Source: Escherichia coli
GTDB taxonomy: Bacteria > Pseudomonadota > Gammaproteobacteria > Enterobacterales > Enterobacteriaceae
Assembly: GCF_003334785.1 (NCBI RefSeq)
Contig: NZ_QOWV01000007.1
Length of the DNA stretch: 64,000 nucleotides
Direction: 5' to 3' (one strand)
Position numbers and translations under genes: made by a program. Positions 1 to 61,909 of the stretch are shown here, piece by piece; within the stretch, counting starts at the first letter, position 1; each line of letters begins with the position of its first letter. The notes beneath the pieces are model-generated. The model was given only the letters and a program-made list of their open reading frames with translations. It made no database searches and was not told the origin of the DNA.

Positions 1-170
1 AGCTACCGTTTCCAGTAGTTATCCCCCTCCATCAGGCAGTTTCCCAGACATTACTCACCCGTCCGCCACTCGTCAGCAAAGAAGCAAGCTTCTTCCTGTT
101 ACCGTTCGACTTGCATGTGTTAGGCCTGCCGCCAGCGTTCAATCTGAGCCATGATCAAACTCTTCAATTT
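1..170 (-). rRNA. rrsH: 16S ribosomal RNA, 5' end only (gene continues beyond window start)
   Basis: Reverse complement of 1..170 reads AAATTGAAGAGTTTGATCATGGCTCAGATTGAACGCTGGCGGCAGGCCTAACACATGCAAGTCGAACGG..., the canonical 16S 5' end; mature 5' end at window 170. Operon identity inferred from flanking gmhB. Confidence 0.95.
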
Positions 171-301
171 AAAAGTTTGATGCTCAAAGAATTAAACTTC
201 GTAATGAATTACGTGTTCACTCTTGAGACTTGGTATTCATTTTTCGTCTTGCGACGTTAAGAATCCGTATCTTCGAGTGCCCACACAGATTGTCTGATAA
301 A

Positions 302-313
302 TTGTTAAAGAGC
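302..313 (-). promoter_or_regulatory. rrn leader boxA antitermination element
   Basis: Minus strand reads GCTCTTTAACAA within TGCTCTTTAACAATTTATCAGACAATCTGTGTGGGCACTCG, the conserved rrn leader boxA context. Confidence 0.7.
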
Positions 314-354
314 AGTTGCGACGCGGCTTTCAGCTCACTGTCGCGAGGTGGCGT

Positions 355-382
355 ATATTACGCTTTCCTCTTTCAGAGTCAA
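355..382 (-). promoter_or_regulatory. rrn P2 promoter (-35 TTGACT / -10 TAATAT)
   Basis: Minus strand: TTGACT (window 377-382), 16-nt spacer, TAATAT (355-360), about 185 nt upstream of the mature 16S end. Confidence 0.6.
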
Positions 383-464
383 CCCTGAATTTCAGGATTT
401 TTCTCTTCAACCGAACCGGCTGTTTGTGTGAAGTGATTCACATCCGCCGTGTCGATGGAGGCGC

Positions 465-520
465 ATTATAGGGAGTCGGCTCAGGAAGACAAGCGGAAAA
501 ATGCATTTTTATTTCAACCG
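465..520 (-). promoter_or_regulatory. rrn P1 promoter with A/T-rich UP element
   Basis: Minus strand reads CTTGTCTTCCTGAGCCGACTCCCTATAATGCGCCTCC (-10 TATAAT at 465-470, -35 TTGTC near 487-492), with A/T-rich TTGAAATAAAAATGCATTTTT immediately upstream (496-520). Confidence 0.7.
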
Positions 521-532
521 CTCATCTTTTAA

Positions 533-1108
533 TCATTGTGCCGGTTTTTGCTGCTTTTTTATCGCTTGCGGCAGGTCTGCCAGGCTATTTAACACCCAAT
601 CCGCCGCGTTTTCTGCTTCAGGCGTAATAGGTTTACCCGTACGCACCAGCACTTTTGTTCCCACGTTCGCCGCAACCGCTGCCTGCATATCTTCTAATTT
701 ATCGCCCACCATATAAGAAGCGGCCATATCAATATGCAAATAATCGCGTGCTGACAAAAGCATCCCCGGATGTGGTTTGCGGCAATCGCAGACCTGGCGA
801 AACTCTTCAACACTACCCTGCGGATGATGCGGGCAATAATAGATACCATCCAGATCGACATCTCGGTCCGCCAGCGACCAGTCCATCCACTCGGTCAGCG
901 TTTCAAACTGTGCTTCGGTAAATTTACCGCGAGCAATGCCAGACTGGTTGGTTACTACCACCAGCGCAAAGCCCATTTTTTTTAGCTCGCGCATGGCGTC
1001 AATAACACCGTCGATAAATTCAAAGTTGTCGATCTCATGGACATAGCCGTGATCGACATTAATGGTGCCATCACGGTCAAGAAAAATTGCGGGTACGCTC
1101 TTCGCCAC
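533..1108 (-). CDS. gmhB: D-glycero-beta-D-manno-heptose-1,7-bisphosphate 7-phosphatase (HAD family)
   Basis: 191-aa ORF with HAD motif FLDRDGTIN near the N-terminus; length and position match gmhB upstream of the rrn operon. Confidence 0.93.
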
Positions 1109-1197
1109 CTTTTATAGCTCCTTAATAAGGCATGTGACGCTAGTATCGCATGTTTCGACCTGCAAGAAAGTGCTCTTCGCATAAACCTGATTGATTT

Positions 1198-1213
1198 AGA
1201 CGTCTGGATGCCT
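1198..1213. promoter_or_regulatory. Putative MetJ operator (tandem met boxes) upstream of metN
   Basis: AGACGTCT (perfect 8-bp met box) followed by GGATGCCT, about 90 bp upstream of the metN start. Confidence 0.45.
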
Positions 1214-1295
1214 TAACATCCATTTCATTGACGGCGTTGCCCGTTTCAGGCATTCGAGATGCCACGACTAACTTAATGACGATAATAAATAATCA

Positions 1296-2327
1296 ATGAT
1301 AAAACTTTCGAATATCACCAAAGTGTTCCACCAGGGCACCCGCACCATCCAGGCGTTGAACAACGTCAGCCTGCATGTGCCAGCTGGACAAATTTATGGC
1401 GTTATCGGTGCCTCAGGCGCGGGTAAGAGTACGCTTATACGTTGTGTAAACCTGCTGGAGCGCCCAACCGAGGGTAGCGTGCTGGTCGATGGCCAGGAAC
1501 TGACCACGCTGTCAGAATCCGAGTTGACCAAAGCTCGCCGCCAGATTGGTATGATTTTCCAGCATTTTAACCTGCTCTCTTCGCGTACTGTTTTTGGCAA
1601 CGTGGCTCTGCCGCTGGAGCTGGACAACACACCGAAAGACGAGGTCAAACGTCGCGTGACGGAATTGCTGTCATTGGTTGGTCTTGGCGATAAGCATGAT
1701 AGCTACCCGTCGAATCTTTCCGGTGGGCAGAAACAACGTGTGGCAATTGCCCGTGCGTTAGCCAGCAATCCCAAAGTATTGCTGTGTGATGAAGCCACCA
1801 GCGCGCTGGACCCGGCAACGACACGTTCTATTCTCGAACTGCTGAAAGACATCAACCGCCGTCTGGGGTTGACGATTCTGTTGATCACCCACGAAATGGA
1901 CGTTGTGAAGCGCATTTGTGATTGCGTGGCGGTCATCAGCAATGGAGAACTGATCGAGCAGGACACGGTAAGTGAAGTGTTCTCGCATCCGAAAACGCCG
2001 CTGGCGCAGAAGTTTATTCAGTCGACCCTGCATCTGGATATCCCGGAAGATTACCAGGAACGTCTGCAAGCGGAGCCATTTACTGACTGCGTGCCGATGC
2101 TGCGTCTGGAGTTTACCGGTCAATCGGTCGATGCCCCACTGCTTTCTGAAACCGCGCGTCGTTTCAACGTCAACAACAACATTATTAGCGCGCAGATGGA
2201 TTACGCCGGTGGCGTTAAGTTCGGCATCATGCTGACTGAAATGCACGGCACACAACAAGATACGCAAGCCGCCATTGCCTGGCTGCAGGAACACCATGTA
2301 AAAGTAGAGGTACTGGGTTATGTCTGA
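1296..2327 (+). CDS. metN: Methionine ABC transporter ATP-binding protein
   Basis: 343-aa ORF with Walker [10 protein letters not shown] and ABC signature [15 protein letters not shown]; 8-bp overlap with metI. Confidence 0.95.
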
Positions 2328-2973
2328 GCCGATGATGTGGCTGCTGGTTCGTGGCGTATGGGAAACGCTGGCAATGACCTTCGTATCCGGTTTTTTTGGC
2401 TTTGTGATTGGTCTGCCGGTTGGCGTTCTGCTTTATGTCACGCGTCCGGGGCAAATTATTGCTAACGCGAAGCTGTATCGTACCGTTTCTGCGATTGTGA
2501 ACATTTTCCGTTCCATCCCGTTCATTATCTTGCTTGTATGGATGATTCCGTTTACCCGCGTTATTGTCGGTACATCGATTGGTTTGCAGGCAGCGATTGT
2601 TCCGTTAACCGTTGGTGCAGCACCGTTTATTGCCCGTATGGTCGAGAACGCTCTGCTGGAGATCCCAACCGGGTTAATTGAAGCTTCCCGCGCAATGGGT
2701 GCCACGCCGATGCAGATCGTCCGTAAGGTGCTGTTACCGGAAGCGCTGCCGGGTCTGGTGAATGCGGCAACTATCACCCTGATTACCCTGGTCGGTTATT
2801 CCGCGATGGGTGGTGCAGTCGGTGCCGGTGGTTTAGGTCAGATTGGCTATCAGTATGGCTACATCGGCTATAACGCGACGGTGATGAATACGGTACTGGT
2901 ATTGCTGGTCATTCTGGTTTATTTAATTCAGTTCGCAGGCGACCGCATCGTCCGGGCTGTCACTCGCAAGTAA
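2320..2973 (+). CDS. metI: Methionine ABC transporter permease
   Basis: 217-aa hydrophobic ORF, translationally coupled to metN (ATGTCTGA overlap). Confidence 0.95.
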
Positions 2974-3012
2974 CGTTCAACACAACATAAATAATTGAAG
3001 AAGGAATAAGGT

Positions 3013-3828
3013 ATGGCGTTCAAATTCAAAACCTTTGCGGCAGTGGGAGCCCTGATCGGATCACTGGCACTGGTAGGCTGCGGTCAGGATGAAAAAGATC
3101 CAAACCACATTAAAGTCGGCGTGATTGTTGGTGCCGAACAGCAGGTTGCAGAAGTCGCGCAGAAAGTTGCGAAAGACAAATATGGCCTGGACGTTGAGCT
3201 GGTAACCTTCAACGACTATGTTCTGCCAAACGAAGCATTGAGCAAAGGCGATATCGACGCCAACGCCTTCCAGCATAAACCGTACCTTGATCAGCAACTG
3301 AAAGATCGTGGCTACAAACTGGTCGCAGTAGGCAACACTTTTGTTTATCCGATTGCTGGTTACTCCAAGAAAATCAAATCACTGGATGAACTGCAGGATG
3401 GTTCGCAGGTTGCCGTGCCAAACGACCCAACTAACCTTGGTCGTTCACTGCTGCTGCTGCAAAAAGTGGGCTTGATCAAACTGAAAGATGGCGTTGGCCT
3501 GCTGCCGACCGTTCTTGATGTTGTTGAGAACCCCAAAAATCTGAAAATTGTTGAACTGGAAGCACCGCAACTGCCGCGTTCTCTGGACGACGCGCAAATC
3601 GCTCTGGCAGTTATCAATACCACCTATGCCAGCCAGATTGGCCTGACTCCGGCGAAAGACGGTATCTTTGTTGAAGATAAAGAGTCCCCGTACGTAAACC
3701 TGATCGTGACGCGTGAAGATAACAAAGACGCCGAGAACGTGAAGAAATTCGTCCAGGCTTATCAGTCTGACGAAGTTTACGAAGCAGCAAACAAAGTGTT
3801 TAACGGCGGAGCTGTTAAAGGCTGGTAA
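3013..3828 (+). CDS. metQ: Methionine-binding lipoprotein (ABC substrate-binding)
   Basis: 271-aa ORF with signal peptide and lipobox LVGC; NlpA-type binding protein. Confidence 0.95.
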   Translation: MAFKFKTFAAVGALIGSLALVGCGQDEKDPNHIKVGVIVGAEQQVAEVAQKVAKDKYGLDVELVTFNDYVLPNEALSKGDIDANAFQHKPYLDQQLKDRGYKLVAVGNTFVYPIAGYSKKIKSLDELQDGSQVAVPNDPTNLGRSLLLLQKVGLIKLKDGVGLLPTVLDVVENPKNLKIVELEAPQLPRSLDDAQIALAVINTTYASQIGLTPAKDGIFVEDKESPYVNLIVTREDNKDAENVKKFVQAYQSDEVYEAANKVFNGGAVKGW

Positions 3829-3865
3829 TTTTTAGGCTGTTTCCACAATTTGTAATATCATTCAG

Positions 3866-3893
3866 GACGGGCGCTTGCCCGTCTTGTCATTTT
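3866..3893 (+). terminator. Intrinsic terminator after metQ
   Basis: Hairpin GGACGGGCGCTTGCCCGTC followed by a T-rich run. Confidence 0.5.
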
Positions 3894-3945
3894 TACAAGC
3901 TCCTGATTCAATATTGACGTTTTGATCATACATTGAGGAAATACT

Positions 3946-4350
3946 ATGCGTGCTTTACCGATCTGTTTAGTAGCACTCATGCTAAGCGGCTGTTCCATGT
4001 TAAGCAGATCCCCTGTCGAACCCGTTCAAAGCACTGCACCCCAGCCGAAAGCGGAGCCTGCAAAACCGAAAGCGCCGCGCGCCACGCCGGTCCGAATTTA
4101 TACCAATGCAGAAGAATTAGTCGGCAAACCGTTCCGCGATCTCGGTGAAGTCAGTGGCGACTCTTGCCAGGCCTCTAATCAGGACTCTCCGCCGAGCATT
4201 CCAACCGCACGTAAGCGGATGCAAATCAACGCCTCTAAAATGAAAGCCAATGCTGTATTACTGCATAGCTGCGAAGTCACCAGCGGTACGCCAGGCTGCT
4301 ATCGTCAGGCTGTATGTATCGGTTCTGCGCTTAACATTACGGCGAAATGA
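3946..4350 (+). CDS. rcsF: Outer-membrane lipoprotein sensor of the Rcs phosphorelay
   Basis: 134-aa ORF with lipobox LSGC and a Pro/Lys-rich linker; 4-bp overlap with tsaA. Confidence 0.93.
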   Translation: MRALPICLVALMLSGCSMLSRSPVEPVQSTAPQPKAEPAKPKAPRATPVRIYTNAEELVGKPFRDLGEVSGDSCQASNQDSPPSIPTARKRMQINASKMKANAVLLHSCEVTSGTPGCYRQAVCIGSALNITAK

Positions 4351-5054
4351 GCAGTTTCCAGTTCGAGCAAATAGGCGTTATTCGCTCGCCCTATAAAGAA
4401 AAGTTCGCCGTTCCGCGCCAGCCAGGTCTGGTAAAAAGCGCCAACGGCGAACTGCATCTCATTGCTCCCTACAACCAGGCCGACGCCGTTCGCGGCCTGG
4501 AAGCGTTCAGCCATTTATGGATCCTTTTCGTCTTTCATCAAACGATGGAAGGCGGCTGGCGTCCGACTGTGCGTCCACCGCGCCTCGGCGGTAACGCCAG
4601 AATGGGGGTTTTCGCAACACGCTCTACTTTCCGCCCTAACCCAATTGGCATGTCGCTGGTAGAGCTGAAAGAGGTTGTTTGCCATAAAGACAGCGTGATT
4701 CTGAAGCTCGGCAGTCTGGATCTGGTCGATGGTACGCCGGTAGTGGATATCAAACCGTATCTCCCCTTTGCCGAATCGCTTCCCGATGCCAGTGCCAGCT
4801 ATGCGCAAAGTGCGCCAGCTGCAGAGATGGCGGTGAGTTTTACCGCAGAGGTCGAAAAGGAGCTTTTGACGCTGGAGAAGCGTTATCCGCAGTTAACGCT
4901 GTTTATCCGCGAAGTACTGGCGCAGGACCCGCGCCCGGCCTATCGTAAAGGTGAGGAAACGGGCAAAACCTATGCCGTCTGGCTACATGATTTTAACGTT
5001 CGCTGGCGCGTCACCGACGCAGGTTTTGAAGTCTTTGCGCTGGAACCGCGTTAA
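4347..5054 (+). CDS. tsaA: tRNA (adenine37-N6)-methyltransferase, YaeB/TrmO family
   Basis: 235-aa ORF matching the YaeB family; position between rcsF and proS. Confidence 0.9.
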   Translation: MSSFQFEQIGVIRSPYKEKFAVPRQPGLVKSANGELHLIAPYNQADAVRGLEAFSHLWILFVFHQTMEGGWRPTVRPPRLGGNARMGVFATRSTFRPNPIGMSLVELKEVVCHKDSVILKLGSLDLVDGTPVVDIKPYLPFAESLPDASASYAQSAPAAEMAVSFTAEVEKELLTLEKRYPQLTLFIREVLAQDPRPAYRKGEETGKTYAVWLHDFNVRWRVTDAGFEVFALEPR

Positions 5055-56676: not shown

Positions 56677-59211
56677 TTAATTACTACCAAACATATCCTT
56701 GATCCAACCGGCTACACCGTCGCTGTCTTTCTGCTCTTGCTGAGCAGGTTGCTGTTGCGGCTGTTGCTGCGGCTGAGAAGACTGATCAAACGGATTGCCT
56801 GACGGCTGCTGCTGCATCTCGCTCTGCTGGCACAGCGATTGCGGATCGCTGGTCCAGACCGGCAAGATACGCATGCCACCGCTGCAAACAAAGTTGCCGT
56901 CGTAGTCCACGCCCATATCTGCAATATCTTCTGGCGGAACAAGATTCAGCGGCGTTGGCGTCTGGTTAGCCAGATAACGCTGATAAATCGACATTGCCCC
57001 GCTGGCACCATACAGTTTGGTCGGCTGGTTGTTATCACGGCCGACCCAGGTGATGGTCACCGTGCTGCCGTCAATGCCCGCAAACCAGGTATCTACGTTA
57101 TTGTTGGTAGTCCCTGTTTTCCCTGCCAGATGCAGGTTCGGGTATTTCGCCCCAAGCTGACGACCCGTACCGCGTTGTACCACCTGCTGCATGGTCCATA
57201 GTGTCAGATACGCCGCCTGCGCCGGAACAGCGCGTTCCGCCTGCGGGAAGCTCTGATACAGCACTTTGCCATCTTCCGCGATTACCGAACGCAGCGCAGA
57301 AAGCGGTGCACGGTTACCACCGCTGGCGATGGTCTGGAATGCCTGCGCCACTTCGATTGGCGTTAAGTTCAACGCCCCCAGCAGCATTGCCGGAACCGGA
57401 TGCAACTGATCTTTCGGTACGCCCAGTTTAATCCAGGTCTCCGTAACCGCAGGCAGCCCCAGCGCCATCCCCAGATTTACCGTCGGCACGTTCATCGAAC
57501 GGGTCAACGCATCCACCAGCATCACTCTGCCGCTTTCGCTATAACGACGGTCATCATTCTGCGGTGACCAGACCTGGCCATTCGGCTGACGCAGCGCAAT
57601 TGGCGCATCCGCAATCCACGTATTCAGACGATAGATTTTCGGCTGGCTTAAGGCCGTCAGATAAGTCGCTGGTTTTGCAAGGGAACCAATCGAACGACGC
57701 GCCTGCATCGCACGGTTGTAGCCCGCAAACTGCGGCTCAGAACCTCCGACCATCGCACGAACTTCACCACTAAAGCGGTCGACGACCACAATCGCAGTTT
57801 CAAGATCGCTCAACTTACGCTGTTTCTTCAGTGCCGGAATGCCTTCCACGGCGGCTTTTTCTGCCGCGTCCTGGGCCACCGAGTCAAAGGTAGTGAAGAT
57901 CTTCACGCCGGAGAGATCTTTTACCTTATCGCCCAGTTTTGCCTGCAGCTCCTGACGCACCAGTTGCATAAAGGCTGGCTGAGGAGAGATCACCCCACCG
58001 CGCGGCTGAACCCCCAGCGGACGGGCACTCAACATGTCATAGAGTTCTTGATCAATAATCTGTTGCTGTTGCAGCAGACGCAGCACCAGATTACGTCGCT
58101 CCAGCGCCAGTTTTGGGTTACGCCACGGGTTGTAGATGGACGCCCCTTTCACCATACCGACTAACAGCGCCTGCTGGTCGAGGCTTAGCTCTTCTACCGG
58201 GCGACCAAAGTAATACAAGCTTGCCAGCGGGAAGCCGCGGATTTCGTTGTCGCCGCTCTGACCGAGATACACCTCGTTCATATACAGCTCAAGAATACGG
58301 TCTTTGCTGTAACGCGCGTCCATGATCAGCGCCATGTAAGCTTCGTTCGCTTTACGCCAGTAAGAACGCTCGCTGGAGAGGAACAGGTTTTTCACCAGCT
58401 GTTGCGTCAGCGTACTCGCACCCTGTACCGTGCGTCCGGCGGTCAGGTTTGCCAGCACCGCACGTCCGATTGAGTAGAGACTGATTCCATCATGCTCGTA
58501 AAAATGACGGTCTTCTGTCGCCAGCAAAGTATCCACCAGCAAATCCGGGAAACCACTGCGCGGCACAAACAGACGCTGCTCACCGTTTGGCGAAGAGATC
58601 ATGGTGATCAGACGCGGATCAAGACGGAAGAAACCGAACTGACGGTTGTTCTCCATATTGACGATCGTCGCCAGATGATCGCCATCAAAGGTCAGACGCG
58701 CGCGCACCTGTCCTTCTTTACTGTCCGGGAAATCAAACGGACGGCGAATCATCTCAATGCTGTTGGCCTGCACGGTAAATTCGCCAGGACGGGTCATTTT
58801 CGACACCTGACGATACTGGGTCGCCTCCAGCAGCTTCACCATCTCGTTCTTGCTGATGGTCATGTCTGGCTCAAGATTGACCATTCGGCCATAAACTGCC
58901 GCAGGCAGTTGCCAGACCTTGCCATCAATACGGCTACGAATTTTTTGATCGAGATAAACGCCGTAAATGGCGATCAGCACGGCAAAAACGATAGCCAGTT
59001 TTAGCAGTAGCCATAGCCAGCCGCGTTTGCCACGAGGCTTACGCCCTTTGCCTTTGCCCTTACCTTTGCGCGGCATCGGTTCTTCATCCTCATAGTCATC
59101 ATAATCGTCGTAATCATCGTCATCTTCGTAACGACGACGGCTTACCTTTTGTTTGACCGGACGCGTCGGTTTCCCTTTGCGTCCAATTGGCTCGCGGTCA
59201 TTCCCGGCCAT
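56677..59211 (-). CDS. mrcB: Penicillin-binding protein 1B (bifunctional transglycosylase/transpeptidase)
   Basis: 844 aa from [14 protein letters not shown]; second in-frame Met at [11 protein letters not shown] (short isoform); acidic [15 protein letters not shown] then basic tail before the TM helix. Confidence 0.96.
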
Positions 59212-59308
59212 GCTTTTTCTCCGCAATATTCAGGCGCAAAAGCCCGATTTTCTGTTCTTCTGTTACAAGACAGAAGAAGATATCTCTCAAAATTTGTGCT
59301 CGATCGGT

Positions 59309-59394
59309 CCCCTCTCCCTTGAGGGAGAGGGTTAGGGTGAGGGTGAACGTGCGCGCTGATGCCCTCACCCCGGCCCTCTCCCACAGGGAGAGGG
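59309..59394. repeat. GC-rich composite palindromic intergenic repeat (boxC-like)
   Basis: Three nested inverted repeats: CCCTCTCCCT tg AGGGAGAGGG; GGGTGAGGGTGAACG...GCCCTCACCC; CCCTCTCCC aca GGGAGAGGG. Family assignment is from memory. Confidence 0.6.
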
Positions 59395-59406
59395 AGAAAA
59401 CCAACC

Positions 59407-61836
59407 TTACGAATACTTTTTCGTCCGTCGCGTCGGTGCAGTATTTGCCGGGTCGTCCGGCCAGACATGTTTGGGATAACGCCCTTTCATCTCTTTTTGC
59501 ACCTCACGGTACGCTCCTTTCCAGAAGGCGCTCAAATCTCGTGTGATTTGTAATGGCCTTTGGGCAGGTGAAAGCAACTCCAGCACCAGCGGCACGCGCC
59601 CCTGGGCGATCGTCGGATTGGTGGCCTCGCCAAACATCTCTTGCATTCTCACCGCCAGCGCGGGCGGGTTATCTTCATGATAACGAATGGCGATCCGGCT
59701 TCCCGTCGGCACAGTGTAATGCGCAGGCAATTCACTATCCAGACGTTGCTGCATTCCCCAATCAAGTAATCCGCGTAGTGCCTGATAAATGTCGAGTGAT
59801 TTCAGGCCGCGTAGTGAATGTACGCCAGTCATATGTGGCAGCAGCCACGTTTCCAGCGCTGCCAATAAACTTTCATCATCAACCGCTGGCCAGTCATATT
59901 CCGGCAACCACTTTGCGGCGCATAACAAACGCAAGCGTAGCTGTTCCGCTTCCGCCGTCCAGTTGAGCACGCTTAAACCTTTATCACGGATGCCATTAAG
60001 CATCGCCTGATGCAACTCGTCTTCTGACGGTTTCGCCAGCGGCTGCACTTTCACCGTCAACTGACCGATTTGTAGCCGACGCCAGGCTTTCAGCGTACCT
60101 TGCGCGTCATCCCACTCCACAGTGTCAGACTGCTGTACCAGCTGCGGGCAGCGTTGTACTAACTCATCAATATCGACCAGCAGCGCCAGTAAAATCCGCG
60201 CATCCGGCGAGGCGCTGCCCTGCAATAATAACGGTGCGATCAACCATTCGTGGCGGCTTAGCGCGTCGTTGGCATCGAGCATCGCTCCCATGCCGTTTGC
60301 CAGTTGATAGCGTCCATCTTGCCCACGGCGACGAGCAATGCGATCGGCAAACGCCCCGGCAAGTAGCGGCGCGATAAGCGAACTGTCTGCCTCACCGCCA
60401 CGTACGTTTAAGCGTTTTAACAGTTGCTGACTACGTTGCTGCCAGGCTGGTTGATTGCGCGAAAACGCCACGCCCAGGTCACTATTGCCCATCCGTGGCG
60501 GCTCTTCGAGAATGGCGGCAATTTTTGCCGCGGTAGCAGCTTCGTCGTCGTTCTTCGCGCTAACCAGCATTGCCGCTAAACGCGGATCGTTACCCAGCGC
60601 TGCCATTTTTTGCCCTTGCGCACTAAGCCGTTCACCCTCCAGTGCCCCCAGCATTTGTAACAGACGTTTCGCGGCCAGTAGATTCACTACTGGCGGTTGA
60701 TCCAGCCAGCTCATCTGCGCCGGATCGCTGCATCCCCATTGCAGTAATTCCATCAGCAAACCGGAAAGATCGCTTTGTAAGATCTCCGGTTCACTTTGCG
60801 CCGCGGCGCGTTCTGCTTGTTCTTTGGCGATTAAATGCAGGCTGATACCCGGCTCCAGACGCCCGGCGCGCCCGGCACGCTGCGTCATGGATGCCTGGCT
60901 AACGCGTTGAGTAATCAGTCGCGTAAGCCCCGTGCGCGGATCAAAACGCGCCACACGCTCCTGGGCACAATCCACCACCAGACGAATACCTTCAATGGTT
61001 AAACTGGTTTCAGCAATATTGGTCGCCAGCACCACTTTACGCATCCCTTGCGGTGCCGGGAGGATCGCTTTTCGCTGATCGTTCAGCGACAACGCGCCAT
61101 ACAGCGGGCAGAGCAATACATCACTGCCGATGCGCGAAGCCAGTTGTTCCTGCACACGCTGAATTTCTCCGACGCCAGGTAAAAATAACAGTAATGATCC
61201 GCTTTCCTGACGCAGCATTTCAGCGGTGGCTACCGCAACGGCATCGTCAAAACGCTGATGCGCGGGCAGCGGTAAATAACGGCGTTCAACCGGAAACGAG
61301 CGCCCTTCTGAGATGACGACAGGCGCTTCTGGCAGCATTTGCTGCAAGCGGTCGTTGTCCAGGGTAGCCGACATAATCAGCAGTTTAAGGTCATCACGCA
61401 GACCTTGTTGCACATCGAGTAACAGCGCCAACGCCAAATCCGCCTGCAAGCTGCGCTCATGAAATTCATCAAGGATCACCAGTCCAACACCGCTCAGTTC
61501 CGGGTCACGCTGGATCATGCGCGTCAGCACGCCTTCGGTAACCACTTCCAGGCGGGTATTCGGCCCGACGCAGTTTTGCGCACGCATCCGGTAGCCAACG
61601 GTATCGCCTGGCTTTTCGTTAAGCAGCTCCGCCAGCCGTTGCGCGACGTTACGCGCCGCCAGACGACGCGGCTCCAGCAGGATAATTTTCCCGTTAATGC
61701 CGGGATGCGCCAGCAGTTGCAGCGGCAGCCAGGTTGATTTCCCGGCCCCGGTCGGCGCACTTAATAATACCTGCGGCGCACAATCGAGAGCGGTAAGTAA
61801 TTCAGGTAAGACGGCAGCAACGGGCAACGACGACAC
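59407..61836 (-). CDS. hrpB: ATP-dependent DEAH-box RNA helicase HrpB
   Basis: 809 aa from a GTG start (rc of 61834-61836); Walker A TGAGKST and DEFH; ORF-track entry extended to an upstream ATG. Confidence 0.9.
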   Translation of the reverse strand: MSSLPVAAVLPELLTALDCAPQVLLSAPTGAGKSTWLPLQLLAHPGINGKIILLEPRRLAARNVAQRLAELLNEKPGDTVGYRMRAQNCVGPNTRLEVVTEGVLTRMIQRDPELSGVGLVILDEFHERSLQADLALALLLDVQQGLRDDLKLLIMSATLDNDRLQQMLPEAPVVISEGRSFPVERRYLPLPAHQRFDDAVAVATAEMLRQESGSLLLFLPGVGEIQRVQEQLASRIGSDVLLCPLYGALSLNDQRKAILPAPQGMRKVVLATNIAETSLTIEGIRLVVDCAQERVARFDPRTGLTRLITQRVSQASMTQRAGRAGRLEPGISLHLIAKEQAERAAAQSEPEILQSDLSGLLMELLQWGCSDPAQMSWLDQPPVVNLLAAKRLLQMLGALEGERLSAQGQKMAALGNDPRLAAMLVSAKNDDEAATAAKIAAILEEPPRMGNSDLGVAFSRNQPAWQQRSQQLLKRLNVRGGEADSSLIAPLLAGAFADRIARRRGQDGRYQLANGMGAMLDANDALSRHEWLIAPLLLQGSASPDARILLALLVDIDELVQRCPQLVQQSDTVEWDDAQGTLKAWRRLQIGQLTVKVQPLAKPSEDELHQAMLNGIRDKGLSVLNWTAEAEQLRLRLLCAAKWLPEYDWPAVDDESLLAALETWLLPHMTGVHSLRGLKSLDIYQALRGLLDWGMQQRLDSELPAHYTVPTGSRIAIRYHEDNPPALAVRMQEMFGEATNPTIAQGRVPLVLELLSPAQRPLQITRDLSAFWKGAYREVQKEMKGRYPKHVWPDDPANTAPTRRTKKYS

Positions 61837-61909
61837 AAAACGCTCCAGAGGGTTAACATTCTTCGCGCCACATTGTAGCATCGCGGTAATTCATAACCGA
61901 GTGCCTCAC

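Follow-up and report, generated by a model that had tools for sequence, protein, structure and literature searches.

Does the GC-rich palindromic element between hrpB and mrcB of Escherichia coli act on these genes, or is it a passenger in their spacer? The element, CCCCTCTCCCTTGAGGGAGAGGGTTAGGGTGAGGG-TGAACGTGCGCGCTGATG-CCCTCACCCCGGCCCTCTCCCACAGGGAGAGGG, occupies positions 59309–59394 of our window, which is the whole 64,000-nucleotide stretch of E. coli DNA analysed here. An initial annotation drew attention to it and likened it to BoxC, a non-coding palindromic repeat, rich in GC, that is interspersed in Enterobacteriaceae. It also named transcript stabilisation, binding of nucleoid proteins and small-RNA production as possible roles of such structured elements. 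In E. coli, BoxC repeats reportedly go back to Bergler in 1992 and to Bachellier, and the PIT elements are said to come from Hoyne and Maher in 2000.

Genomic context of the element

In the window, the hrpB ORF (59407–61881, minus strand) precedes mrcB (56677–59211, minus strand, ATG at 59211) in the direction of transcription. The element follows hrpB and precedes mrcB (Table 1), and both the ORFs and the K-12 RefSeq record place it between these genes, as initially annotated. The same annotation took the two genes as divergently transcribed, which is wrong, because both lie on the minus strand in tandem; the ORFs, K-12 RefSeq and the table of Kaplan et al., 2016 (PMC5100583), in which hrpB and mrcB are shown in tandem, agree on this point. 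In E. coli K-12 (NC_000913.3; the window position equals 223941 minus the K-12 coordinate), hrpB (162105–164534) and mrcB (164730–167264) are tandem genes, and their spacer is free of any annotation. The element sequence is 100% identical in K-12 and many other strains. Its location is strictly intergenic, between the hrpB stop at 59407 and the mrcB start at 59211, and the paralogues examined are intergenic too.

As the initial annotation had pointed out, ORFs run across the element on both strands (59142–59468 and 59198–59404 on the minus strand; 59187–59546 and 59359–59553 on the plus strand). None of them is annotated in K-12 RefSeq, which has neither an ncRNA nor a CDS there, while one PLSDB record carries an automated 'hypothetical protein' across the element. 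These ORFs, that single annotation and the strong hairpin potential would fit a small-RNA gene or a protein-coding micro-ORF at the element. We find this scarcely credible. A promoter and terminator scan finds no promoter-like or terminator-like site at the element, and natural strains tolerate deletions of 12, 63, 64 and 102 bp, in which the reading frame is not respected. An Rfam search at a permissive E-value gives no family at threshold, the best match being mir-197 with 29.4 bits against 74; we rejected membership in an RNA family, as the sub-threshold matches are all generic miRNA-like hairpins. For annotation, it is useful to mark the element-crossing ORFs as spurious and to enter the repeat, which K-12 RefSeq leaves out.

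Table 1. Features in and around the repeated unit, in window coordinates
Feature	Position	Strand	Description
Whole repeated unit, 107 bp	59295..59401	.	BoxC inverted pair with conserved flanks, TGTGCTCGATCGGTC ... GGGAGAGGGAGAAAAC
BoxC unit A (TMECO no. 2, type A; HPGQ no. 6)	59310..59344	+	CCCTCTCCC-TTGA-GGGAGAGGG-TTA-GGGTGAGGG-T; regular expression, Holder 2015, Kaplan 2016
BoxC unit B (TMECO no. 1, type B; HPGQ no. 5)	59361..59394	-	CCCTCTCCC-TGT-GGGAGAGGG-CCG-GGGTGAGGG-C; regular expression, Holder 2015, Kaplan 2016
Central spacer GAACGTGCGCGCTGAT	59345..59360	.	Between the units; loop of the predicted long hairpin; marks the 'short-spacer' subfamily
Inverted repeat CCCTCTCCCT/AGGGAGAGGG	59310-59319/59322-59331		100% complementary; repeat finder
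Inverted repeat GGGTGAGGG/CCCTCACCC	59335-43/59362-70		Within 27-nt arms 59317-59343/59362-59388; arms 81% complementary
Inverted repeat CCCTCTCCC/GGGAGAGGG	59374-59382/59386-59394		100% complementary; repeat finder
Fourth pairing, outermost arms	59310-19 with 59385-94		100% complementary; repeat finder
Direct repeat CCCTCTCCC	59310..59318 (copy 1); 59374-59382 (copy 2)	+ (copy 1)	End-points of the 64-bp collapse deletion
Direct repeat AGGGAGAGGG	59322..59331 (copy 1); 59385-59394 (copy 2)	+ (copy 1)	End-points of the 63-bp deletion and, with the variant below, of the 12-bp deletion; direct-repeat family D1
12-nt-spaced variant of direct repeat AGGGAGAGGG	59334-59345		End-point of the 12-bp deletion, with copy 1 of the repeat
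hrpB stop codon TAA	59407..59409	-	Separated from the repeated unit by 5 nt; RefSeq hrpB end 164534
TTGAGA, proposed mrcB -35 box	59285..59290	-	Start of the conserved core; outside the repeat, with 4 nt between it and the unit

Identification as a BoxC pair

The initial annotation saw a resemblance to the boxC family, with its function given as unknown. The match is in fact exact: both halves equal published BoxC entries base for base. Judged by sequence, the element is an inverted (tail-to-tail) BoxC pair that has already been catalogued, and every testable defining feature of BoxC/PIT/TMECO/HPGQ is found in it. Holder et al., 2015 (PMC4666352) equate their TMECO with the BoxC repeat of the 1990s and with the PIT element of Hoyne/Maher, and count 23 units at 18 loci in MG1655, with five A+B inverted pairs. 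In their Table 1, no. 1 (CCCTCTCCCTGTGGGAGAGGGCCGGGGTGAGGGC, 164547–164580, sense, type B) corresponds to window 59394–59361 on the minus strand, and no. 2 (CCCTCTCCCTTGAGGGAGAGGGTTAGGGTGAGGGT, 164631–164597, antisense, type A) to window 59310–59344 on the plus strand. Kaplan et al., 2016 (PMC5100583), who name the HPG1/HPG2 HPGQ motifs, list both halves as G-quadruplex/hairpin motifs HPGQ 5 and 6. A BoxC length of 56 bp and 32 copies are given by Petrillo, 2008.

We scanned the window by regular expression for the three-block motif, which consists of CCCTC(T/G)CCC(C), a loop, (G)GGGAGAGGG, then TTA (type A) or CCG (type B), and then GGGTGAGGG. It occurs at 59310–59343 on the plus strand (TTA) and at 59362–59394 on the minus strand (CCG), and nowhere else in the 64-kb window. 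A search for other copies, proposed with the initial annotation, reveals that the element is not unique and belongs to a multi-copy family: we count 28862 matching places, spread over 4509 of 5426 complete E. coli genomes at a median of 6 per genome. The hairpin motif gives 0 matches in 100 dinucleotide-preserving shuffles of the window, and in a second comparison 0/200 shuffles match the element. Together with the published catalogue entries, these results lead us to discard a chance palindrome or a local quirk of one spacer, a reading that has only the small size of the element in its favour.

As a discovery the element carries little weight, for the family was already known in the 1990s, and the locus stands in two published catalogues. 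Our literature search found no functional follow-up of TMECO/HPGQ after 2016, and 'boxC' is absent from the main text of a 2026 paper on HusR. The additions of the present analysis to the catalogues are modest: the 107-bp copy unit, the predicted dominance of a long hairpin, the sharing of a slot with REP, and the occurrence of both orientations in that slot.

Extent of the repeated unit and related copies

The initially annotated extent, 59309–59394, is right for the palindromic core, but the repeated unit is wider and includes the flanks TGTGCTCGATCGGTC and AGAAAAC. In the phnD–phnE spacer of E. coli strain 5283, we observed a pair that is 95% identical over exactly 59295–59401, and nothing beyond. 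The similarity starts at TGTGCTCGATCGGTC and stops at GGGAGAGGGAGAAAAC, and therefore we define the unit as 59295–59401. By its sequence, this 107-bp pair behaves as a single copyable unit. In K-12, four other pairs align with the element, flanks included, and the four tail-to-tail pairs have a common left flank GTGCTCnnTCnGTC and the common right flank AGAAAAC.

The flank of unit A is GTGCTCGATCGGTC. Unit B with its flanks (gtgcggcctgatg...agaaaac) stands alone in the hrpB–mrcB spacer of Enterobacter, Leclercia, Lelliottia, Phytobacter and Huaxiibacter. In many genera, unit B with the flanks gtgcg(c/g)(g/c)ctgatg...agaaaac measures about 53–56 bp, which is the classical 56-bp length. We also considered units A and B as direct repeats defined by GTGC-type flanks and rejected this, as the alignment showed no real flank homology.

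The short central spacer is common to the pairs of E. coli E69, Lelliottia V86_10 and strain 5283 at phnD–phnE. Unlike this subfamily, the other K-12 pairs have spacers of 29–30 nt. Additional strain-specific copies are located at flgG–flgH and adjoining flgN, the latter in B-then-A order. Few genuine plasmids carry the element, and enterobacterial phages lack it; the PLSDB plasmid search is partly uninformative because many of its matches are mislabelled chromosomes.

Predicted fold of the pair

The three inverted repeats reported in the initial annotation were all recovered in place by our repeat finder. The outermost arms pair as well, so the whole element is a nested palindrome, and its terminal inverted halves are the two units. 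RNA folding of both strands, another check put forward initially, yields −70.6 and −67.4 kcal/mol (z = −6.6 and −7.0), and DNA folding of both strands yields −33.7 and −32.5 (z = −5.5 and −6.1 against shuffles). For either strand, the predicted lowest-energy fold is a single nested hairpin of about 35 bp (−66.6/−66.3 kcal/mol), in which outer arm pairs with outer, middle with middle and inner with inner. When only local hairpins are allowed, the fold reaches −47.2/−48.6 kcal/mol, so that the nested fold is about 18–19 kcal/mol better under an energy model that excludes triplexes. The term 'triple-hairpin' is thus apt for the three inverted repeats, but not for three separate hairpins as the preferred fold.

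Both published catalogues attach a non-B structure to these units. Holder et al., 2015 (PMC4666352) favour an intrastrand triplex, which they observed in vitro by CD and NMR on consensus oligonucleotides, and report increased variability around TMECO; Kaplan et al., 2016 (PMC5100583) favour a G-quadruplex/hairpin switch and observed an ion-dependent one by CD. An intrastrand purine-motif triplex or a switch between G-quadruplex, hairpin and duplex might regulate the mrcB promoter or have evolved to generate variation locally. Each unit has the G3N3G3N3G3N3G3 pattern and the C-block/G-block/G-block arrangement of a triplex, and the repeated unit ends 4 nt upstream of the proposed mrcB −35 box. 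However, no triplex was found in double-stranded DNA or by in vivo DMS footprinting (Holder et al., 2015, PMC4666352), and the third block in the pair is predicted to be Watson-Crick paired to the partner unit in the nested hairpin. In the G4 model of ViennaRNA, the G-tract alone (−12.6 kcal/mol) loses to the unit's own hairpin (−18). The G-quadruplex is not competitive in this model, because a G-quadruplex-aware fold left the minimum-energy structure unchanged. The element is furthermore dispensable and stands in either orientation beside the same conserved core. We consider a non-B switch at this locus very improbable.

Alleles and decay in E. coli

We defined allele classes with a 701-bp query across the spacer and sampled 59 evenly spaced rows. 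The full pair is present in about 60% of these rows, including K-12 and O157:H7, and an empty site in about 34%, whereas collapsed alleles account for about 5% of E. coli (3/59). A junction-specific query finds the uninterrupted empty-site junction in 1884 of 5426 complete E. coli genomes (34.7%). CFT073, Nissle 1917, NC101 and ST131 are among the empty-site strains. The element is dispensable.

The collapsed alleles show what is lost. In O111 08-4377, 64 bp are gone between the CCCTCTCCC direct repeats (59310 and 59374); in Combat11I9, 63 bp are gone between the AGGGAGAGGG repeats (59322 and 59385); and 99-3311 has lost the 12-bp unit AGGGAGAGGGTT. Similar collapses occur in Escherichia sp. 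E1V33, in SCPM-O-B-8794, which carries the opposite-orientation allele, and in TUM10828 at phnD–phnE. A single CCCTCTCCC copy and one hairpin are kept in O111 08-4377, E1V33 and TUM10828. All six examples, from two loci and both orientations, end in internal direct repeats. As the same types of collapse recur across strains, orientations and the phnD–phnE locus, decay is recurrent and intrinsic to the element. This pattern agrees with the 'palindrome effect' and the raised variability around TMECO sites that Holder et al., 2015 (PMC4666352) report independently.

Meanwhile, the comparison of filled and empty alleles at hrpB–mrcB, or of filled and alternative alleles at phnD–phnE, shows no target-site duplication. 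A few bases are replaced at the junctions between filled and empty alleles, and for this reason a clean insertion event is not reconstructable. For typing and assembly, the locus is best flagged as hypervariable, since empty, full, collapsed and inverted alleles occur.

The hrpB–mrcB slot across Enterobacteriaceae

We further compared 74 Enterobacteriaceae species for which both hrpB and mrcB were retrieved. The last 80 nt before the mrcB ATG, from TTGAGAGAT on, are invariant or nearly so across species. The region between the hrpB stop and this 80-nt core is variable and forms the only unconstrained slot of the spacer. It is 1–18 nt long in 11/74 species. In 27/74, it holds BoxC units, pairs, arrays or remnants (Escherichia, Enterobacter, Lelliottia, Leclercia, Phytobacter, Huaxiibacter, Intestinirhabdus, Kluyvera ascorbata and others). 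REP-like sequence fills it in at least 16/74 (Citrobacter, Salmonella, Superficieibacter), a count limited to the REP-only species, and the remaining species have other sequence. A class with both BoxC and REP is inflated, because the REP regular expression also matches the BoxC-B flank GCCTGATG. Leclercia, E. hormaechei and Phytobacter have, behind the BoxC unit and distinct from it, a hairpin that resembles a terminator and has a T-run.

The 93-nt empty spacer of B2-type strains recurs in Escherichia albertii and Escherichia sp. MOD1-EC7003, so the simplest reading is that the empty state is ancestral in Escherichia. A pair of the short-spacer subfamily is also present in E. coli E69 and Lelliottia V86_10, in the opposite orientation and between other outer flanks, which argues for at least two arrivals in the slot. 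A simple inversion of one ancestral insert, as the sole explanation of K-12 versus E69/Lelliottia, was rejected, since the unit-A sequence and the outer flanks differ. At phnD–phnE, the place of the BoxC pair of strain 5283 is taken in K-12 by a REP pair. Targeting could explain why BoxC is concentrated in the hrpB–mrcB slot, and so could purifying selection alone, acting at all other sites.

Could the element be selected as an intercistronic stem-loop of the REP/BIME type, which protects hrpB mRNA from 3'-exonucleases or attenuates read-through into mrcB? The REP/BIME at malE–malF is the functional equivalent cited for such a role. The modelled sense-strand RNA hairpin is very stable and would form close behind the hrpB stop, and BoxC and REP alternate in post-stop slots, between genera here and within E. 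coli at phnD–phnE. The latter site follows the binding-protein gene inside the phn ABC-transporter cluster. Farther along the hrpB–mrcB spacer in the direction of transcription, a covarying hairpin on the sense strand suggests that sense transcription runs across this spacer. Of the 19 K-12 loci in the table of Kaplan et al., 2016 (PMC5100583), 17 include at least one gene 3' end; loci between divergent genes are scarce (2/19), but this is not significant (binomial p ~0.11). Against this role, the element is missing in 35% of E. coli and in many genera with nothing instead (spacers of 80–93 nt), and its orientation in the slot is not conserved. In published assays, PIT elements lack terminator activity. 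We therefore judge a selected function of this kind unlikely, although the full pair kept in about 60% of E. coli and the presence of BoxC units in this slot in several genera could instead point to weak selection for some function.

Comparison with known repeats and terminators

The element resembles REP/BIME (PU) in many respects. Both are small GC-rich palindromic intergenic repeats, single or clustered, located just after stop codons and variable among strains, and both use the same slots, hrpB–mrcB in Citrobacter/Salmonella and phnD–phnE in K-12. Nevertheless, the element is not a REP, because the REP (PU) consensus GCC(G/T)GATGCG...CTTATC(C/A)GGCCTAC was not found in 59295–59401, and the REP-like sequences from Citrobacter, Salmonella and K-12 phnD–phnE do not align with the element. 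REPs stabilise upstream mRNA and have RAYT as a partner transposase. For BoxC, we know of no partner transposase and, unlike REP, of no binding of gyrase, IHF or Pol I. By analogy, the element works like REP/BIME in location and, probably, in RNA structure.

It also shares features with MITE-like repeats such as ERIC/IRU, Correia/NEMIS and RUP: a length of about 100 bp, inverted terminal halves, lack of coding capacity, strong RNA hairpin potential, presence/absence polymorphism and copies scattered among strains. In contrast to these repeats, it shows no target-site duplication at either of the two comparisons, and single BoxC units of 35–56 bp also occur. To our knowledge, BoxC has no related insertion sequence, transposase or cognate autonomous element.

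Like a Rho-independent terminator, the element is a GC-rich stem-loop directly downstream of a stop codon; unlike one, it has no U-tract, and its stem is far longer than usual. The terminator scan finds no terminator-like site at the element on either strand, and the sense strand continues after the stem as GACCGATCGAGCAC without a T-run. Because of the missing U-tract, the element is not an intrinsic terminator.

Probable origin and decay of the element

We consider it probable that the element is a selfish or neutral, dispensable and slippage-prone palindromic passenger with no locus-specific function. A unit would arrive, without target-site duplication, in permissive slots behind stop codons that are also used by REP/BIME. 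We suppose that the slot pattern reflects tolerance, since the slot is the only unconstrained place in the spacer, and targeting may contribute. Once single-stranded, as lagging-strand template or transcript, the pair is predicted to fold into the nested hairpin of about 35 bp, which would be more stable than three small hairpins and would tie up the third G-block that a lone unit needs for a triplex or G-quadruplex. The hairpin would bring internal direct repeats together, and replication slippage between them could delete 64, 63 or 12 bp and leave a single perfect hairpin. The deletions are seen in the alleles, and we infer that they arise in this way.

If transcription reads through from hrpB, the stem-loop in the RNA would begin about 12 nt behind the stop codon and may, like REP, stop 3'-exonucleases or slow RNA polymerase. 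The published assays, reported for single PIT elements, found neither promoter nor terminator activity.

On the other hand, BoxC inverted pairs (about 107 bp with flanks) might be a true mobile unit, a MITE-like hairpin element that leaves no target-site duplication. It would be copied by a single-strand-DNA mechanism, for example by a RAYT or IS200/IS605-type enzyme, or by template switching. If the same post-stop slots are targeted, BoxC and REP/BIME would compete and substitute for each other functionally at intercistronic stem-loop positions. Compatible with this idea are the occurrence of nearly the same unit at two unrelated loci, the two orientations found in one slot, the REP/BIME alternative allele at phnD–phnE and the lack of a target-site duplication. 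The comparison of alleles at hrpB–mrcB and phnD–phnE identified no partner enzyme, and we know of no transposition or copying mechanism of BoxC. We give a true mobile unit a minor chance and retain the selfish or neutral passenger as our preferred explanation.

The comparative picture makes two questions testable, namely how BoxC repeats spread and whether they act. Its parts are a slot with BoxC, REP or nothing, recurrent collapse, a 107-bp unit at two loci, and no target-site duplication in either comparison.

The conserved core upstream of mrcB

The core begins with the TTGAGA box 4 nt from the repeated unit. Table 3 of Shimada et al., 2014 proposes a promoter, TTGAGA-17-TGTAAC, in the hrpB>mrcB spacer on the basis of SELEX data. 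A literature search for mrcB transcription start sites or 3'-end data found this SELEX-based proposal only. In 75 Enterobacteriaceae sequences, TTGAGAGA is invariant, and the proposed −10 is not conserved.

Inside the core, we notice a hairpin at 59255–59278 on the minus strand (TTCTTCTGT/ACAGAAGAA, repeat I5). The proposed −10 box would fall in its non-conserved loop. Neither this hairpin nor a second small stem at 59231–59246 has a match in Rfam. Its covariation is clear: among 74 distinct sequences, 95% of the cells of the hairpin are paired, compared with 44–53% when the partners are slid. Changes on both sides occur in 6 of 10 pairs, and 0/500 shuffles reach the observed score. On the sense strand, 71 G·U pairs stand against 10 A·C equivalents, and this bias indicates an RNA structure on the hrpB/mrcB strand.

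Conserved segment upstream of mrcB

Each of the 74 Enterobacteriaceae species compared conserves the 80 nt that precede the mrcB ATG, and across these species the segment contains the invariant string TTGAGAGAT.TCTTCTT. Its hairpin carries compensatory changes at 6 of 10 pairs, is 95% paired vs approximately 50% when the partners are slid, and shows a bias towards G·U pairs on the sense strand (71 vs 10). A second stem is located in the same segment, and an Rfam search of the segment returned no match. We notice that the -10 box proposed from SELEX (TGTAAC) falls inside the non-conserved loop of the hairpin. We regard the segment as a candidate for a structured leader, a processing site or an attenuator of PBP1b expression.

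Arrangement and sites of BoxC pairs

At strain-specific loci, the BoxC units occur in the order B-then-A, approximately 25–30 nt apart. One such locus adjoins a glycosyltransferase/lysine-N-methylase pair near flgN, and another occupies the flgG-flgH spacer of a second flagellar cluster. In K-12, the lldD-trmL pair also has the B-then-A order; together, these loci indicate that BoxC pairs have two arrangements.

The phnD-phnE spacer is a second polymorphic slot, in which a BoxC pair, a single BoxC hairpin or a pair of REP (PU) elements is found. The REP pair is present in K-12 and most other strains.

Composite repeats and repeated flanks

In Enterobacteriaceae UBA3516 and Phytobacter diazotrophicus, a composite repeat of approximately 96 bp forms three tandem copies. 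In each copy, a BoxC type-B unit precedes a hairpin that resembles a terminator (aaagattttctc...gagaaaatctt) and a T-run. This composite is also present, as a single copy, in Leclercia, E. hormaechei and Phytobacter ursingii. In Enterobacter spp., two or three tandem copies of the type-B 5' flank, (a/g)gtgcggcctga, stand directly before the unit, which suggests local slippage or the scar of a copying process.

Coordinates of the features (window positions for mrcB; own coordinates for the retrieved comparison loci, L)
Feature	Position	Remarks
Conserved mrcB-upstream segment	59212-59291	minus strand
Hairpin in segment	59255-59278	minus strand
Second stem in segment	59231-59246	minus strand
B-then-A BoxC loci	L093 1205-1333; L094 1219-1348	
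phnD-phnE, E. coli 5283	L092 1201-1308	BoxC pair, 95% identical to hrpB-mrcB pair
phnD-phnE, K-12	L095 252-356	pair of REP (PU) elements
phnD-phnE, TUM10828	L096 252-311	single BoxC hairpin, collapsed
Tandem composite arrays	L071 4904-5282; L080 4904-5271	Enterobacteriaceae UBA3516; Phytobacter diazotrophicus
Tandem type-B 5' flanks	L043 4904-4945; L061 1552-1600; L077 3654-3710	Enterobacter spp.
Phage matches	A18a MG065686.1 13636-13677; A11a MG065691.1 160446-160487	
PLSDB matches of chromosomal origin		H92, H98, H103

Phage and plasmid matches

The sole phage matches to BoxC come from the Campylobacter phages A18a and A11a (174 kb each), where 43 nt with 95% identity to unit A occur at two places per genome; they may reflect contamination, convergence or real transfer. 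Among PLSDB, E. coli 'plasmid' records containing the chromosomal hrpB-mrcB locus, several of 4.8–4.9 Mb and others of 0.4–1.3 Mb, are chromosomes or chromosome fragments, and BoxC plasmid counts are therefore inflated. In one of them, AP026530.1, the 'hypothetical protein' annotated across the hrpB-mrcB BoxC element is a spurious ORF call.
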